Assembly (NCBI GenBank): GCA_963795085.1
Contig: CAWCFX010000006.1
Coordinates: forward strand, 328,888 to 392,887
Direction: 5' to 3'
From: an uncultured Gemmatimonadales bacterium
Lineage (GTDB): Bacteria > Gemmatimonadota > Gemmatimonadetes > Gemmatimonadales > GWC2-71-9
DNA length: 64,000 nt
A program made the position numbers and the translations under genes. Within the stretch, counting starts at the first letter, position 1. Every line of letters begins with the position of its first letter. Below, one piece after another: positions 13,713-37,590 of the stretch. Under the pieces are notes generated by a model. That model saw nothing but the letters and a program-made list of their open reading frames with translations, did not search any database and was not told the DNA's origin.

Positions 13713-14378
13713 ATGTCTCGAGTATTTGTGTTTTCCGCGTCGGCGGTGGTGCTGGCTGGGGTTTTTCTGCTGACCCGGCCCGGCGCCGGCACGCCGGGGG
13801 TGCCGGACAGTGTGGCTACGGGGGACACCCTGGACCTCTTGATCGCCCAGCGCAGCAAGGGATCGCCGGCGGCACCGATCGCGGTGTTCGAGATGTCCGA
13901 TTTCCAATGCCCTTTCTGCCGCCGGCATGCGCTGGAGACCTTTCCCGACCTGGACCGGCGCTATATCCAGACCGGCAAGGTCCGGTGGACCTTCGTCAAC
14001 TTTCCCATCCCCGAGATTCACCCCAATGCTACGGCCGCGGCGGAGTTCAGCATGTGCGCCGCGAAGATTGGCAAGTTCTGGCCGGTGCACGACCTGATTT
14101 TTGAGCACCAGGATGCCTGGAAGTCGCTGGGAGACCCGGGGCCCTTCCTCATCGGGCTGGCTGACTCGGCCGGCATCCGGCGGGGGGATATCCTGCCCTG
14201 CCTGGAGAATGGAGAAACGCGGGAATTGGTCCGGACCGAGGCGGAGGAGGTGGCGCGGGTGGGGATTCAGAGCACCCCCACCTTCGTGATCGAAGGGAAA
14301 CTGCTCCGCGGCGCGGCGCCGCTGGAGGTCTTTACCGCGATCTTTGATTCGATCTACGCGGCCCGGACCGGGGACTGA
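13713..14378 (+). CDS. DsbA-family thiol:disulfide oxidoreductase (thioredoxin fold)
   Basis: N-terminal TM/signal segment and a CPFC active site in the context FEMSDFQCPFCRRH; 221 aa. Confidence 0.8.
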   Translation: MSRVFVFSASAVVLAGVFLLTRPGAGTPGVPDSVATGDTLDLLIAQRSKGSPAAPIAVFEMSDFQCPFCRRHALETFPDLDRRYIQTGKVRWTFVNFPIPEIHPNATAAAEFSMCAAKIGKFWPVHDLIFEHQDAWKSLGDPGPFLIGLADSAGIRRGDILPCLENGETRELVRTEAEEVARVGIQSTPTFVIEGKLLRGAAPLEVFTAIFDSIYAARTGD

Positions 14379-14731: not shown

Positions 14732-15490
14732 TCATCGCAGGGATAGAAACACGTCGTACAGCGCGTGAGTCCAGGCGGCGATGCCGAACCCGCGCAGCAG
14801 GTAGAGCCCGCTGAACAGCACCCCCGCGATAGCCCGGAAGGTGAAGGAGTTGAGCTCCAGCGGGTCGCCGTAGGGGCCGATATAGTGAAACGCCGAGAAG
14901 ACCAGCGCGCCCACCACCGTCGCGACGATGCCCGCCACCACCGGTTTCCAGCCCAGCAGCAATCCCGCCCTGGCCAGCGCCGCTACCAGCAGGACCCGGA
15001 ACAGGAGTTCCTCGTAGAGTCCCGCCCCCAGGGAGATCATCAACTGCGTCGGCAGGTTCATCCGCTCGATCGCGGTCTGGGACGCCACAGTATAGAGCGT
15101 GCCGTGCAGCAGCAGGGAGGTCAGCGACGCCGCCACAAAGCCGAAGAGCAGGGCGTAGATGCTGGACTCCGCCAGCATGCCGAGGAAGAGCCGGGGCGAC
15201 AGTTCCCGGCCCGCGCGCTTCCAGTCCCGGTAGGCCAGCACCAGCAGCGTCCCTACCAGGAGAACTCCGAACGCCACGACACCCCGCCGGCCACCCATGG
15301 CGATGAACACGCTCTTCATCAGCACGTCGGCCCCGTTCCGAACGCCGGCGATGGCGTCGCCCGAGAGCGCGAAGGCGAGCACCTCGTAGAGCAGGAGCAG
15401 GGGGATGGCGAAGAGGAGACTGTACCGGGGGGCCCGGGTGAGGGACCAGTAACGGGGAGCGGGAGGCATTGATGGAGGATAAGGGGGCAA
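14732..15490 (-). CDS. CPBP family intramembrane glutamic endopeptidase (CAAX protease/Abi)
   Basis: Multi-TM protein with EELLFR and FSAFH motifs. The start is either TTG 15490 or ATG 15469. Confidence 0.8.
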   Translation of the reverse strand: MPPYPPSMPPAPRYWSLTRAPRYSLLFAIPLLLLYEVLAFALSGDAIAGVRNGADVLMKSVFIAMGGRRGVVAFGVLLVGTLLVLAYRDWKRAGRELSPRLFLGMLAESSIYALLFGFVAASLTSLLLHGTLYTVASQTAIERMNLPTQLMISLGAGLYEELLFRVLLVAALARAGLLLGWKPVVAGIVATVVGALVFSAFHYIGPYGDPLELNSFTFRAIAGVLFSGLYLLRGFGIAAWTHALYDVFLSLR

Positions 15491-15512
15491 GGGGGCACGC
15501 GGGCAAGGGGCC
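15481..15512 (+). repeat. short array of octamer AAGGGGGC (about 4 degenerate units)
   Basis: aagggggc aagggggc acgcgggc aaggggcc. Same unit family as 37594-37609 and 56862-56925. Confidence 0.6.
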
Positions 15513-15599
15513 CGCAGCCCGTGGGTCTGGGGCTAGGCTTTTCGCCGATTGATCTCCTCGCCCGAATCTGGTACTTTCTCTGCGAAGTCAGATTTCTGC

Positions 15600-15785
15600 C
15601 CTATGTTCCACCTTTTGCGAAGGAGGTGATCCATTGTCTAGTGAGAGTTGCATCGCAGGCTCGAATCGGGCAAACGGTCGCCTGGTAACGCGCTAACCGA
15701 TACGAAGCGCAATCGAGAGCGACGCGTTTTCGAGCTCGATGCCAACAGAAGGCGCCATTCACCTCCGGGTGGGTGGCGCCTTTCA
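15600..15785 (+). ncRNA. candidate structured leader or small RNA: perfect anti-SD complement, 20-codon mini-ORF and terminal hairpin; identity unknown
   Basis: Lower-GC pocket. AAGGAGGTGATCC at 15620-15632 is a 13-nt perfect complement of the 16S 3' tail. TTG at 15634 opens a 20-codon ORF (to TAA 15694-15696). Nested stems: GTCGC/GCGAC and GCGCT/AGCGC. A 9-bp stem AAGGCGCCA...TGGCGCCTT at 15749-15782 is followed by TC. Confidence 0.25.
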
Positions 15786-15844
15786 CTTCCCCCCAGCCAA
15801 CCGGCCCCCTTGCCCCCACTTCCCGTCCCGGCCACCATTCCCCC

Positions 15845-17140
15845 ATGCGCCCCTCGTTGCTCTACCGTGCCGGCCTGGCGCTCTCCCGGCCGCTGATCCC
15901 GCTGGCCGGGCTGCTGAGCGCCAAGATCGCACGGGGCCACCGGGCCCGGGCCGGGGCGCTTGGGCGGATGGAGACATGGGGCCGCACCCAGCGCGACCCG
16001 TCTCGCCCCCTGGTCTGGTTTCATGCCCCCTCGGTGGGCGAGGGACTGCAGGCGCGCAGCGTCCTGAGCCGGGTCCGGCTGCGGCATCCCGAGTGGCAGA
16101 CGGTGTACACCCATTTCAGCCCCTCGGCCGAGCGATTCGCCGAGGGCATCGGCGCGGACCTCGCCGATTACCTGCCCTACGACGGCATGTCCGCCGCCCG
16201 CCGCCTGCTGGAGTCGCTGCGGCCCACCGTCCTGGTGTTCACCAAGCTCGACCTGTGGCCGGAACTCGCCACCGCCGCCCGGAACCGCGGGGTGAAGGTG
16301 GTGCTCGTCGCGGGCACCGTGCGGCCGAAAAGCAGCCGGCTGCGCTGGCCGGCCCGGCGGCTCATCCGGCCCGGGTATCGAGCGCTCGATGCGGCCCTGG
16401 CCATCGCGGAGGCCGATGCCAAACGGCTGGTGACGCTGGGGGTGCCGTCCGGGGCGGTGAAAGTGGTGGGCGACCCCCGCTTCGACAGCGTCCTCGACGT
16501 GGTCCGGTCGGTCCCCCCCGATGACCCGATGAAACGGTTCGGGAGAGATGCCGTGACCCTGGTCGCCGGCTCGACCTGGCCGGGCGATGAGGCCGTCCTC
16601 CTCGATGCCTATGCCCGGCTCCGGGTGCACCGGCCGGATGCGCGCCTCATCCTGGTCCCTCACGAGCCGACCACCGCTCACCTGAGCGGGATCGACCGCA
16701 TGGCCAACCGGGCCGGCCTGCCGGCACCGGTACGGTTGAGCTCGGCGGGCGGACCGGTCCCCTTCCTGGTGGTGGACCAGGTCGGATCCCTGGCCCGCCT
16801 CTATGGCGGCGGGGCGATGGCATACGTGGGCGGCGGGTTCCACGGCCAGGGGCTCCATTCGGTGCTGGAACCCTCGGCGTGGGGCATTCCCTCGGTGTTC
16901 GGCCCGCGATGGACGGAAAGCCGGGATGCTTCGCTACTGCTGGAAGCCGGTGGGGCGGAAGCGCTGGCGGAACTGGGGAACTACGAAGCGGCGGAGGCCC
17001 TGCAGGCCCTCTGGGAGGACTGGATCATCAATGAGGTCCGGCGCAAGGCCCAGGGCCGGAAAGCGCTGGCGGTGGTGCAGAGCGGCGCCGGTGCCGCCGA
17101 CCGCTCCGCCGACCTGATCGAGGAGGTCATGCGCCACTAA
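15845..17140 (+). CDS. waaA: 3-deoxy-D-manno-octulosonic acid (Kdo) transferase
   Basis: LVWFHAPSVGEGLQA and overall WaaA/KdtA architecture. Start chosen at ATG 15845 (MRPSLLYRAG); the listed ORF starts at 15773. Confidence 0.9.
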   Translation: MRPSLLYRAGLALSRPLIPLAGLLSAKIARGHRARAGALGRMETWGRTQRDPSRPLVWFHAPSVGEGLQARSVLSRVRLRHPEWQTVYTHFSPSAERFAEGIGADLADYLPYDGMSAARRLLESLRPTVLVFTKLDLWPELATAARNRGVKVVLVAGTVRPKSSRLRWPARRLIRPGYRALDAALAIAEADAKRLVTLGVPSGAVKVVGDPRFDSVLDVVRSVPPDDPMKRFGRDAVTLVAGSTWPGDEAVLLDAYARLRVHRPDARLILVPHEPTTAHLSGIDRMANRAGLPAPVRLSSAGGPVPFLVVDQVGSLARLYGGGAMAYVGGGFHGQGLHSVLEPSAWGIPSVFGPRWTESRDASLLLEAGGAEALAELGNYEAAEALQALWEDWIINEVRRKAQGRKALAVVQSGAGAADRSADLIEEVMRH

Positions 17141-17576: not shown

Positions 17577-18221
17577 TCAGAGTCCGGGAAGGTTGAGGCC
17601 GTAATGCACGCCGATGCCAAAGACGCTGACGCTGCTGCCCTCGGACCTGACAACATCGTAGGCGGCATGAAAGCCCAGCCCGCTCAGCAGGTTCAGTTCG
17701 ACCCCGCCACTGATTCCGAATTCGGAATCCGTCTCGGCGTCGATCCCGGTGCCCGACACACGGGCGATATCGATGCGCGGGGCAATCCAGGGCTTGATCC
17801 CGATGAGGGTCGTGGGGATCCGTGCCGAGAAGCTCACCCCGATGGGGAACCGCCAGAGGGAGAGGTCGGAGATCTTGGTCCGGGAGGCTCCCGCCTGGGC
17901 CGTCACCGCGAAGGGGATGAGGGGTCCCCCAAAGAGCTTGAGATTGGCGGTGCCCCCGACAGAGGTCAGGCCGTCGAAGCCATCGGGCGTCCACCGCGAC
18001 ACGCTGGCCGTCACGCCCAGCGGGCCCAGGCCCACCTTGCCTGTTGCGCCGAACGCCGTGCCGCCGCCCGCCTCGTCGTTAGGAAACCCGACGTCACCAG
18101 CGATGGTGAGGCCGGTCGAGACCCCGCTGTTGATGACCGGGAGCCCTGGATTCTGGGCCCGGGCGGTGACGCTGTATCCCAGGACCAGCGCACCAAGGAC
18201 GACGAGGTGGGAACGACCCAT
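17577..18221 (-). CDS. outer-membrane beta-barrel protein (OmpA-like barrel/porin family)
   Basis: Signal peptide ending ARAQN, alternating beta-strand pattern, and the aromatic-containing C-terminal strand GIGVHYGLNLPGL. Confidence 0.7.
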   Translation of the reverse strand: MGRSHLVVLGALVLGYSVTARAQNPGLPVINSGVSTGLTIAGDVGFPNDEAGGGTAFGATGKVGLGPLGVTASVSRWTPDGFDGLTSVGGTANLKLFGGPLIPFAVTAQAGASRTKISDLSLWRFPIGVSFSARIPTTLIGIKPWIAPRIDIARVSGTGIDAETDSEFGISGGVELNLLSGLGFHAAYDVVRSEGSSVSVFGIGVHYGLNLPGL

Positions 18222-18261
18222 GCTACCTCCGGGAGGATAGGGAATTGGCTGGGGGAATGTA

Positions 18262-18450
18262 AACGATTGAGGGAATTGAGGGAATGTTGAAATTGAGGGA
18301 ATTGAGGGAATGGGGAAATTGAGGGAATTGAGGGAATGGGGGAATTGAGGGAATTGAGGGAATGGGGGAATTGAGGGAATTGAGGGAATTGGGGTAGTTT
18401 CAATTCCAACATTCCCTCAATTCCCCCATTCCCTCATTTATTCCAACCTT
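18262..18450 (+). repeat. tandem approx. 10-mer array (GGGAATTGAG family) followed by inverted copies; forms a long imperfect hairpin
   Basis: Forward units attgagggaa/tgggg run from 18266 to about 18390, then a loop, then ttccctcaat-type units at 18411-18450. Confidence 0.9.
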
Positions 18451-18461
18451 CCCTCAATTTA

Positions 18462-19068
18462 CTACCTCGTAAAGCTCACCCCCAGGCTGATCCCGTCGTA
18501 GTCGCCCAGGCCGGCCCCCAGCCGGGCATCGAGCCGGGGGCTGAACTGGATGTCAACGCCCAGTCCGAGGCCGAACTGGATGTCGTCCTGGGTGTCCCCG
18601 AAGGTCGGAACCAGCACCGGCTCGAAGTACGGGACGAAGGTAGTCTTGGTGCCTTCCAGGTTGATCCGGCGTCCCAGGCTGAACCCGATGGGAATCAAAC
18701 CGATGGAGGCGTCGCTGGCGAATACGCCGCCGATTCCTATGGTGAGGGCGCCGTCGAGCGGGAAGACTTCGGTGGCCCGGAGCACCCGCATCCGGACATC
18801 GATGCCGGTGATGAAGAAGGTGGTGCCGGGCCCGTTGGGGGTATCGGCATCGTTGTCGCCGATCCCGGCCCGAAAGCCGAAGTCGAGGGGACCCCGCCCG
18901 GCCCGATACATCCCTTCGAGGGTGAACCCGGGACCGGGGTCGGTGAAGAATATCCCCAGCTCCGTGGTGCGGAATGCCTTGACCGGCGCAAGAAAAACCG
19001 GCGTGCCGGTTGTCTGAGCCTGAGCGCCAGACGCGGCCACGCCGGTCATGATAAGCAATAGACTGAGC

Positions 19069-19079
<11 letters not shown>
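18462..19079 (-). CDS. outer-membrane beta-barrel protein
   Basis: Signal peptide MLRRLSLLLIMTGVAASGAQAQ, Gly-rich alternating strands, and the C-terminal strand ISLGVSFTR. Its ATG (19079) lies 11 nt inside the atpC 3' end. Confidence 0.7.
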
Positions 19080-28688: not shown

Positions 28689-28761
28689 GGGGGCGTAGCT
28701 CAGTTGGGAGAGCGCGTGAATGGCATTCACGAGGTCAGGGGTTCGATCCCCCTCGCCTCCA
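28689..28761 (+). tRNA. tRNA-Ala (anticodon GGC)
   Basis: Manual cloverleaf: acceptor GGGGGCG/CGCCTCC with G3:U70, anticodon loop aTGGCat, T-loop GGTTCGATCC. No encoded CCA. Confidence 0.95.
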
Positions 28762-28860
28762 TTAGGTCGGACGGGCGGACCGGCACCAGTGCTCACGCTG
28801 GTCGCCGAAGGATCAGGGCTCAGTTGCCAACGCTCGGGCGGGACGCTAGAATCCCGGCAC

Positions 28861-28933
28861 GCGGGAATAGCTCAGTTGGTAGAGCACAACCTTGCCAAGG
28901 TTGGGGTCGCGGGTTCGAGTCCCGTTTCCCGCT
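28861..28933 (+). tRNA. tRNA-Gly (anticodon GCC)
   Basis: Acceptor GCGGGAA/TTCCCGC, anticodon loop tTGCCaa, U73 discriminator. Confidence 0.95.
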
Positions 28934-29038
28934 CTTCGTACCGGCGGACAGGCAGCCAGCCTCTCCAGCCGGGCTTGAAAAGTTCAGGGTGTAAAGTCCG
29001 TCGGTTCGCCAGTTCGGCCGTTCAGCTTTAAGAAACGT

Positions 29039-29112
29039 CGCGGGGTGGAGCAGTCTGGTAGCTCGCCGGGCTCATAACCCGGAGGTCGTGGGTTCAAATC
29101 CCACCCCCGCTA
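29039..29112 (+). tRNA. initiator tRNA-fMet (anticodon CAT)
   Basis: CGCGGGGTGGAGCAG start with an unpaired 1:72 position and three G:C pairs closing the anticodon stem (GGGCTCATAACCC). Near-identical layout to E. coli tRNA-fMet. Confidence 0.93.
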
Positions 29113-29120
29113 TAAAAAGA

Positions 29121-29200
29121 AGTACTGAGTGAGGAGTACTGAGTACTGAGTCGATGCCCGACCCTCAGTACTCAGTACTTTTGTCTCAGTACTTTGTACT
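29121..29200 (+). repeat. AGTACTG heptamer units arranged as an inverted repeat; terminator-like hairpin with T tract (stem 29135-29179, TTTT to 29182)
   Basis: agtactgagtactgag / loop tcgatgcccgacc / ctcagtactcagtact + tttt, then a second partial copy (gtctcagtactttgtactttt). Confidence 0.85.
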
Positions 29201-29204
29201 TTTG

Positions 29205-29278
29205 GGGCGGTTAGCTCAGTTGGTTAGAGCGCCACGTTGACATCGTGGAGGTCACAAGTTCGAGCCTTGTACCGCCCA
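29205..29278 (+). tRNA. tRNA-Val (anticodon GAC)
   Basis: Acceptor GGGCGGT/ACCGCCC, anticodon loop tTGACat. Confidence 0.95.
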
Positions 29279-29292
29279 TTCCGATTCACCAG

Positions 29293-29366
<74 letters not shown>

Positions 29367-29398
29367 TTGTAATCGAAGGGATTAAGGACCGGCCTGCC

Positions 29399-29444
29399 TC
29401 AATTCCTTCAATTCCTTCAATTCCCTCAATTCCCTCAATTCCCC
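29399..29444 (+). repeat. 9-mer array (TCAATTCCY)x5
   Basis: tcaattcct tcaattcct tcaattccc tcaattccc tcaattccc, lying between the two tRNA-Arg genes. Reverse-complement family of the 18262 array. Confidence 0.9.
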
Positions 29445-29445
29445 A

Positions 29446-29519
29446 GGGTCCTTAGCTCAATTGGATAGAGCATCTGACTTCGGATCAGAAGGTTGGGGGT
29501 TCGAGTCCCTCAGGGCCCG
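29446..29519 (+). tRNA. tRNA-Arg (anticodon TCG)
   Basis: Acceptor GGGTCCT/AGGGCCC, anticodon loop cTTCGga. The body is nearly identical to tRNA-Arg(ACG). Confidence 0.93.
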
Positions 29520-33040: not shown

Positions 33041-33114
33041 CGGGGCGTAGCGCAGCCTGGTAGCGCGCTTGCTTCGGGAGCAAGAGGTCCCGGGTTCAAA
33101 TCCCGGCGCCCCGA
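33041..33114 (+). tRNA. tRNA-Pro (anticodon CGG)
   Basis: Acceptor CGGGGCG/CGCCCCG, anticodon loop tTCGGga, T-loop GGTTCAAATCC. Confidence 0.95.
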
Positions 33115-37516: not shown

Positions 37517-37590
37517 GGGTCCGTAGCTCAGCTGGATAGAGCGCTTGCCTCCGGAGCAAGAGGTCGCGCGTTCGAATCGCGCCGGGCCCA
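37517..37590 (+). tRNA. tRNA-Arg (anticodon CCG)
   Basis: Acceptor GGGTCCG/CGGGCCC, anticodon loop cTCCGga, T-loop CGTTCGAATCG. Confidence 0.95.

Follow-up and report, generated by a model that had tools for sequence, protein, structure and literature searches.

A probable self-masked, translated small RNA gene upstream of waaA in an uncultured Gemmatimonadales bacterium

The intergenic region upstream of waaA

We analyzed a 64,000-nucleotide (nt) stretch of DNA from an uncultured Gemmatimonadales bacterium (contig CAWCFX010000006.1, positions 328,888 to 392,887), here referred to as the window, and concentrated on the intergenic region at positions 15470-15844. This region separates a Rce1/CAAX-protease-like gene (Pfam PF02517; 14732-15469, minus strand) from waaA, which encodes a Kdo transferase (PF04413; 15845-17140, plus strand, ATG at 15845-15847). 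A previous reading of the letters alone (the original prediction) had pointed to a long Shine-Dalgarno (SD) sequence, a short open reading frame (ORF) and a hairpin in this region and had offered three readings, namely an attenuator of waaA, an independent small RNA (sRNA) or a sponge for ribosomes. Our comparative analysis suggests that the segment at approximately 15549-15790 probably constitutes an independent small gene on the plus strand, which would give rise to a translated small RNA that masks its own initiation region and is opened by the tail of the ribosome's 16S rRNA.

The extended SD sequence of this element, AAGGAGGTGATCCA, lies at 15620-15633 on the plus strand, as do all the parts of the element described below. 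The 13-nt complement of the anti-SD on which the original prediction was built (AAGGAGGTGATCC, 15620-15632) is present as described, and together with A15633 the match to the 16S 3′ tail UGGAUCACCUCCUU amounts to 14 nt. The window contains a single exact copy of AAGGAGGTGATCC, against an expectation of about 0.002 based on its length. The duplex of this SD with the 16S tail has a predicted energy of -25.1 kcal/mol, against a median of -6.9 kcal/mol for the 44 putative genes of the window under the most generous choice of SD, and the accompanying remark that most genes here carry a weak SD was therefore roughly right. Seven nucleotides past GGAGG (15622-15626), the TTG at 15634-15636 opens the mini-ORF MSSESCIAGSNRANGRLVTR (15634-15696), which runs for 20 codons up to a TAA stop at 15694-15696, exactly as had been proposed. 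The low-GC pocket in which the element was said to lie is likewise real, the GC content being 0.48-0.61 over 15550-15750 versus 0.67-0.79 in the flanks.

Upstream of the SD, we identified a putative sigma-70-type promoter with the -35 sequence TTGATC (15549-15554), a 17-nt spacer and the -10 sequence TACTTT (15572-15577), from which a transcriptional start at approximately 15584 was inferred. In support of this assignment, the pattern TTGNNN-N16-18-TANNNT is found upstream in 35 of 69 Gemmatimonadota-type members of the family described below, against 1.4 expected. The -10 sequence usually ends 30-34 nt before AAGGAGG in these members, and 42 nt before it in the window. The 5′ leader (15584-15619) carries a block, GCCC-N-ATGT-N-CCACC at 15597-15613, that is conserved in our alignment A1. 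An ATG at 15603, which would open an 8-codon ORF ending in the SD, was rejected as a further start because neither the codon nor its frame is conserved.

At the other end lies the terminal GC-rich hairpin GAAGGCGCCATTCACCTCC/GGGTGGGTGGCGCCTTT (15748-15783). A strong stem upstream of waaA, described as 9 base pairs (bp) at 15749-15782 with an inner CACC/GGTG stem, had been recognized correctly; the helix comprises 16 bp at 15748-15783, closes a 4-nt loop, CCGG, and is followed by CACTTCC. It ends exactly 61 nt before the waaA ATG, in line with the earlier estimate of about 60 nt. No U-tract of the kind seen in canonical intrinsic terminators follows the hairpin, which probably represents the 3′ end of the transcript or a weak terminator; generic promoter and terminator scans detected neither in the window. 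An RNA of approximately 205 nt, with its own promoter and ending in this stable hairpin, is thus predicted, and a 211-nt stretch of this region has a predicted folding energy of -89.4 kcal/mol (z = -5.0 relative to shuffled sequences). The 5′ arm of the window's hairpin also contains UCACCUCC (15759-15766), which reproduces the anti-SD core of 16S rRNA and could bind the SD. It was rejected as a conserved masking strand, and is probably coincidental, because it is absent from the closest relatives (L163 and L222) as well as from others.

Conservation of the mini-ORF and of a putative internal masking strand

Relatives of the element were sought with the 20-mer AAGGAGGTGATCCANTGTCT, a pattern that cannot match 16S genes, in one genome per species across 185,579 species (GTDB), and in a second scan the TTG version of the 20-mer was run against metagenome contigs. 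Each of the two scans found at least 120 loci with the 20-mer, against a chance expectation of about 4. The genome matches listed come mostly from Alphaproteobacteria, and also from Gemmatimonadota, Gammaproteobacteria and one planctomycete. Among the matches listed, NTG opens an ORF of 10-30 codons at nearly every locus, the length being specific to the clade. Gemmatimonadota members have 20-21 codons, those of Rhodobacterales 18 and those of Bradyrhizobium 14; ORFs of 21-26 codons are found in an alphaproteobacterial group termed 'MSHC' and of about 26 codons in gammaproteobacteria. The encoded peptides are unrelated between branches, save for the Met-Ser imposed by the search pattern. In 81 of 95 GTG-start members (85%), the complementarity to the 16S tail reaches 17 nt (alphaproteobacterial 16S 3′ sequence as quoted in PMC6943124). 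The family occurs in lineages that make sparing use of SD sequences; in Caulobacter, 75% of genes lack one (PMC4117421). The same 20-nt motif is also found in front of ordinary longer genes (L032, L049, L103 [Azospirillum], L136, L205, L207 and L230), including those for 59-60-residue secreted-looking proteins in Azospirillum and for a phage-like protein starting MSTTVFDVLN, so that the motif alone does not identify a member of the small-RNA family.

We gathered about 66 distinct members of Gemmatimonadota type; L001, L006 and L087 are labelled Gemmatimonadota, and L006 is syntenic with the window. The ORF comprises 20 codons in 52 of these 66 members and 19-23 codons overall, even though the segment between an invariant 15-mer inside the ORF and the stop codon takes 40 different sequences and TGA, TAA and TAG are all used; the two other reading frames show no such regularity of length. 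As expected of a genuine small ORF, the start codon is suitably spaced from the SD (7 nt), and relatives keep the ORF boundaries. Codons 3-11 and the C-terminal tail vary freely within the branch, and the only conserved residues, W/R-A-S/N-D/G-R, are those encoded by the 15-mer, which itself takes part in RNA pairing. Purifying selection beyond this nucleotide constraint, which would mark a functional small protein, was not found. The conservation among relatives that the original prediction proposed to look for was accordingly seen for the stems, the ORF length and the 15-mer, but not for the peptide, whose sequence is variable.

The 15-mer, GGGCAAACGGTCGCC at 15668-15682 in the window, appears to be the masking element of the initiation region. 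All 24 aligned relatives share its consensus GGGCAARCGRUCGCC almost without change, apart from A-to-G substitutions that convert a U-A pair into U.G, and its complementarity to the initiation region is significant (z < -2) in all 64 members tested. In the helix designated P0, GGTCGCC (15676-15682) pairs with GGTGATC (15625-15631) and GGGCAA (15668-15673) with TTGTCT (15634-15639). In the RNAalifold prediction, too, the 15-mer binds the 3′ half of the SD (GGUGAUC) and UUGUCU, which comprises the start codon and codon 2. The initiation region is largely paired in the predicted folds of every member, and the state with P0 formed is predicted to be on average 6.2 kcal/mol more stable than a state in which the SD is unpaired. 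In addition, the 15-mer (GGGCAAACGGUCGCC) partly imitates the 16S tail itself (GAUCGCC versus GAUCACC). The element has what a switch that masks its SD should contain, a conserved strand that is complementary to both the SD and the start codon and has an alternative partner (P2, below). The original prediction had assigned this role to CACCT (15609-15613) pairing with AGGTG (15624-15628). That pairing does form in the minimum-free-energy fold of the window, in which the leader CACCTTTT (15609-15616) is able to pair with AGGAGGTG (15621-15628), but it is weak in relatives, the leader hairpin shrinking to about 4 bp in most of them. The conserved masking partner thus appears to be a different sequence, the in-ORF strand at 15668-15682. 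Significant complements to the initiation region exist in other branches as well, namely those of Bradyrhizobium and of the 14-codon 'MSN' members, and in roughly one half of the CC2171-like members discussed below, while Rhodobacterales have an alternative in the 16S-tail mimic CCAUCUCCUU, located further downstream, before the terminator.

Two further helices connect the ORF to the segment that precedes the terminal hairpin. P1 joins codons 5-10 of the ORF (5′ strand GTTGCATCG..GGCTCGA, 15647-15664) to the 3′ strand TCGAGCT CGATGC CAAC (15730-15746) and is present in the minimum-free-energy fold of the window. It was not recovered from the alignment made with MAFFT and RNAalifold because bulges shift its register, and it was instead tested by comparing the pairing of own and foreign arms and by counting pairs at positions anchored on the 15-mer. 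The own arms pair with -26.2 kcal/mol, compared with -16.6 kcal/mol for arms taken from different members and -13.8 kcal/mol for shuffled arms. At each position from -10 to -4, counted from the 15-mer and fixed within the ORF, 54-57 of 57 sequences show pairing, and two to three Watson-Crick pair types are represented. P2, which extends P1, provides the alternative partner of the 15-mer: its 3′ strand GCGACGCGTT (15719-15728) pairs with AACGGTCGC (15673-15681), the own arms giving -18.3 kcal/mol and shuffled arms -13.0 kcal/mol, and it is backed by conservation, not by covariation. In the terminal hairpin, RNAalifold reported 15 pairs changed on both sides with pairing kept. An alternative pairing between the 3′ strand of P1 and an arm of the hairpin was looked for and not found.

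Relation to CC2171 and genomic context

The original prediction could match the element to no RNA family. A permissive Rfam scan, as had been proposed, links it to CC2171 (RF01867), yet only below threshold: the match spans the full length of the model (positions 1-159) and scores 23.5 bits (E = 0.007), and the gathering threshold is 75 bits. The other permissive matches (mir-762, sul1 and sR47; E values of 0.55-5) were dismissed as chance, and tRNAs are the only Rfam matches in the window that reach the gathering threshold. The eight tRNA genes are all on the plus strand, at 28689-29519, 33041-33114 and 37517-37590, six of them within about 830 bp (28689-29519). The RF01867 match shares AAGGAGGUGAUCCAKUGUCU and the terminal hairpin with the window. 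CC2171 has the same architecture, namely the 5′ motif AAAGGAGGUGAUCCAGUGUCU and a long-range helix reaching to the segment in front of the terminal hairpin, and the shared 20-nt motif ties the window element to genuine members of CC2171. When scored on RF01867, the alphaproteobacterial 'MSHC' loci reach 80-104 bits, whereas the Gemmatimonadota-type loci L001, L006, L065 and L087 stay below the threshold. As only the 'MSHC' group passes it, CC2171 represents one branch of a wider family. We infer that the window element belongs to a Gemmatimonadota branch of this cross-phylum family, related by homology rather than convergence.

The CC2171 entry in Rfam, a noncoding model, reportedly goes back to a 2008 screen in Caulobacter. 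The RNA CC2171_CC2172 of Landt (2008) corresponds to CCNA_R0051 (2404309-2404501), which has a 5′-triphosphate end and is conserved (PMC4117421). In the ribosome profiling (Ribo-seq) study of Schrader et al. (2014), CCNA_R0051 was flagged as 'Translated CCNA_03965', and a chromosomal CCNA_03965::YFP (yellow fluorescent protein) fusion gave a Western blot band of the expected size, making it one of four small coding sequences verified in this way (PMC4117421). Fröhlich et al. (2018) described CCNA_R0051 as a 209-nt RNA with its own promoter and a convergent downstream gene, induced 4.4-fold, although not specifically, by mitomycin C (PMC6237742); the length of the primary transcript is thus 193-209 nt in the two reports (PMC4117421 and PMC6237742). 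In Methylorubrum, CC2171 RNA was seen on Northern blots (bioRxiv 10.1101/2022.01.24.477521). Our literature search found no functional study of CC2171.

The genomic context argues that the element is a unit of its own. Orthologues of waaA (45-69% identity) adjoin it in 19 loci, but waaA lies downstream on the same strand only in the window, L163 and L181, and in the other 16 loci it is located upstream and has the opposite orientation. The gene that the element faces in most relatives is the CAAX-protease-like one, the divergent upstream neighbour in the window. A divergent pair of flanking genes means that the element necessarily lies on the strand of one of them, and a shared strand is therefore uninformative. 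L125 and L181 carry near-identical elements in opposite arrangements, and the element has thus been flipped in place between waaA and the CAAX-protease-like gene at least twice in evolution. Across the family, the downstream gene is on the same strand in 92 of 164 scorable loci and convergent in 72 (44%). Collectively, the inverted position of waaA and the frequency of convergent downstream genes indicate an independent unit and not an attenuator of waaA, and no fixed same-strand position upstream of waaA is kept among relatives. The suggestion of a leader controlling the Kdo transferase is therefore unsupported, and of the readings offered by the original prediction it is the independent sRNA that the comparison favours, with the addition that the mini-ORF is a conserved and probably translated part of it.

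In the window, the element is flanked by an imperfect inverted repeat (15483-15510 and 15790-15817; 28 nt, 79% complementary), with a 14-nt exact core GGGGGCAAGGGGGC/GCCCCCTTGCCCCC. It is a low-complexity G/C run of a quality that shuffled sequences also reach. An invertible element (inverton) was considered, as both orientations occur among relatives, but is unlikely, since the repeats of the window are of low complexity and none are present in relatives. A DsbA-like thioredoxin gene (13713-14378) and two small genes for beta-barrel-like outer-membrane proteins (17577-19079) are syntenic with the element in many Gemmatimonadota-type contigs. At the same position, upstream of the CAAX-protease-like gene, the metagenome loci L213, L221 and L224 carry a shortened version with an 11-codon ORF (MSTESRVACGR), a reduced masking strand, GGGUCGCC, and a canonical U-tract terminator.

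Clustering of the gene neighbourhoods (flanking ORFs of 240 loci) yielded only blocks confined to single clades, and no shared function emerged. Two of the recurrent neighbours deserve mention. In 14 Rhodobacterales loci (including L013, L005, L018, L034, L083, L113, L058, L111, L077, L075 and L062, at about +185 to +315 after the motif), arfB follows a family member directly and on the same strand, the call being an alternative ribosome-rescue factor by NCBIfam equivalog (173 bits). In two Bosea loci (L024 and L026; +288), the element lies directly upstream of rnr, the gene for ribonuclease R (equivalog, 654 bits). ArfB and ribonuclease R both act on stalled ribosomes and non-stop mRNAs. This repeated placement suggests a link to ribosome rescue and quality control, which we treat as a weak lead. 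The upstream regions of other branches differ: Bradyrhizobium-type and other alphaproteobacterial members carry a sigma-32 (RpoH)-like pattern, CTTAAC/CCCTTG-N16-17-CCTATATT/CCCCATNT, at about -60 to -20 before the motif (L011, L045, L053, L063, L068, L078, L082, L091 and others), the strict form being present in 8 of 93 alphaproteobacterial members against 0.4 expected, and Rhodobacterales show TTGACA followed by the palindrome CACAAAATCTGTG. A low-GC branch (L143, L149, L204, L206, L208, L218, L229 and L233) has a 14-codon ORF resembling MSNASTMGASGDKG and a conserved upstream block GCGCCAGGGGAGC...CACCCCCTGG.

A ribosome-opened small RNA and its relation to known systems

On this basis, we propose the following model. 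In the naked RNA, the 15-mer would keep the initiation region masked, from the 3′ half of the SD through the spacer to the start codon. P0 would cover GGUGAUC and leave AAGGA exposed, so that a free 30S subunit could bind there, after which the 16S tail, through the extra complementarity GUGAUCCA, would invade the helix and displace the internal mimic GAUCGCC. Such a displacement would explain why the complementarity extends far beyond that of a normal SD. The 15-mer can alternatively pair with a downstream strand in P2, stacked on the co-varying P1, and translation would then unzip the 5′ strands of the P1/P2 hairpin and end at the fixed stop in its apical region. Given that the ORF combines a fixed start, length and stop with an unconstrained peptide, the passage of the ribosome, rather than the peptide product, seems to be what matters. 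Candidates for the output are a trans-acting 3′ half, the stability of the RNA itself and ribosome occupancy.

Several observations weigh against this model. P0 shows no covariation, because both of its strands are invariant, and instead of alternating, P0 and P1 might form together as a pseudoknot; moreover, every energy given here is a prediction. The invariance of the SD, of the start region and of the UCU codon is partly built in, since the search patterns required them. The window promoter is a poor match to the consensus and was missed by the generic scan. The match to Rfam is below the gathering threshold and is carried mainly by the SD motif and the hairpin, so that the relatedness to CC2171 could reflect convergence on the universal 16S tail. 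Finally, the 61-nt spacer contains no recognizable waaA promoter and the hairpin has no U-tract, and read-through into waaA may therefore occur in this genome, which would be incidental to the conserved role of the element.

Some of these points favour a cis-acting leader, in which translation of the mini-ORF would decide on passage past the hairpin into waaA or, in relatives, into the CAAX-protease-like gene. Besides the hairpin without a U-tract and a C-rich spacer without a separate promoter, such a leader would fit the location of the window element on the waaA strand, with the hairpin ending close to the ATG, the presence of a same-strand gene within about 20-65 nt throughout the closest Gemmatimonadota subgroup, and the positions directly upstream of arfB in Rhodobacterales and rnr in Bosea. 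However, the gene to be served changes, waaA being divergent in most of the relatives that have it; with divergent neighbours either orientation faces one gene, so that the shared strand carries no weight; and the downstream gene is convergent in 72 of 164 cases, Caulobacter included. Alternative pairings do exist (P0 versus P2 with P1), yet none involves the terminal hairpin, and an exchange between the 3′ strand of P1 and a hairpin arm was not found. We therefore regard an attenuator as quite unlikely. A true small-protein gene, in which the 20-residue peptide is functional and the RNA structures only tune its synthesis, would account for the conserved start, length and stop, for the optimal SD and spacing and for the translation of the Caulobacter homologue (PMC4117421), but the peptides are unrelated across branches and conservation within the branch is confined to residues encoded by the 15-mer, and this explanation is improbable to the same degree.

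The element could also be a decoy for, or a sensor of, the anti-SD, which titrates or reports free 30S subunits and is perhaps tied to ribosome rescue. The contiguous 16S complementarity (14 nt here and 17 nt in 85% of GTG-start members) is far above the need of efficient initiation, internal mimics of the 16S tail are present, the family occurs in lineages that spare SDs, such as Caulobacter with 75% of its genes lacking one (PMC4117421), members adjoin arfB and rnr, and CCNA_R0051 is stress-induced (PMC6237742). Against this, titration of ribosomes would take thousands of copies, and the adjacency to arfB and rnr amounts to two evolutionary events among many unrelated contexts, which makes a decoy or sensor unlikely, too. 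At the other extreme, an SD-like sequence and a hairpin that meet in a spacer by chance would agree with the lack of an Rfam match at the gathering threshold, but hundreds of relatives with a common ORF length, the 15-mer, co-varying helices and a promoter already refute this explanation, to which we assign next to no probability.

We thus return to the translated, self-masked small RNA opened by the 16S tail as the probable explanation. A bolder generalization, which we consider doubtful, is that the family forms a cross-phylum class of sRNAs (Alpha- and Gammaproteobacteria, Gemmatimonadota and Planctomycetota) whose initiation region pairs with all of the single-stranded 16S tail (14-17 nt) and is kept shut by an internal mimic of it, the free 30S subunit being the 'ligand' that opens these RNAs through strand displacement, so that they would act as sensors or decoys of ribosome (anti-SD) availability. 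For annotation, the result would be that the region upstream of waaA holds a separate small gene and not a riboregulator of waaA. Four points are new: the defining 5′ motif of CC2171 matches the 16S 3′ tail perfectly over its whole length, a very short ORF, fixed in length but free in sequence, is conserved together with this motif, several branches carry an internal strand able to mask the SD and start codon, and the design reaches beyond Alphaproteobacteria into Gemmatimonadota and phyla that Rfam omits. It is also puzzling that, in many lineages in which SDs are rare, one RNA has retained the strongest possible SD. Should the ribosome-opened switch prove true, it would represent a new way of sensing or engaging free ribosomes.

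Among known systems, ribosome-dependent attenuators such as the trp, his and pheS leaders share with the window element a short leader ORF that forms part of one arm of alternative helices, with a hairpin downstream. Unlike these leaders, the window element is devoid of runs of regulatory codons, a terminator/antiterminator alternative was not found in it, and the downstream gene is unconserved in its family and often convergent. SD-masking elements, including the ROSE and fourU thermometers and translational riboswitch platforms, likewise rely on an internal complement of the SD and start codon that competes with the ribosome and has an alternative partner. They reside, however, in the 5′ untranslated region of the protein gene that they control, whereas the masking strand described here lies within the 20-codon ORF of an orphan RNA, and their SD is ordinary whereas that of the window element is maximal. 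Dual-function sRNAs (Pos19 of Rhodobacter sphaeroides, SgrS/SgrT and RNAIII/hld) resemble the window element in being short primary transcripts with their own promoter and terminator and a translated small ORF, but have known targets or peptides, while the peptide here is unconstrained. Pos19, which has a 50-codon ORF and is specific to one species (PMC5036791), was considered as a characterized homologue and rejected on these grounds as well as for its RpoE promoter and unrelated sequence (PMC5036791).

The closest known system is CC2171 itself. It is identical to the window element in the 5′ motif (AAGGAGGUGAUCCA-NUG-UCU) and also has a short ORF that starts 7 nt past GGAGG, a long-range helix from early ORF codons to the segment before the 3′ hairpin, a length of about 190-210 nt, its own promoter and a variable genomic context. 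The two differ in phylum, the window element being of Gemmatimonadota type, in the start codon (UUG in the window and GUG in CC2171), in the extent of 16S complementarity (14 versus 17 nt) and in the internal strand, the invariant in-ORF 15-mer of the window being replaced in CC2171 by a CUGGAUC segment. They also differ in how they are read: the Rfam model of CC2171 describes a noncoding RNA with a free SD, whereas we interpret the element upstream of waaA as a probably coding RNA whose SD would be masked.

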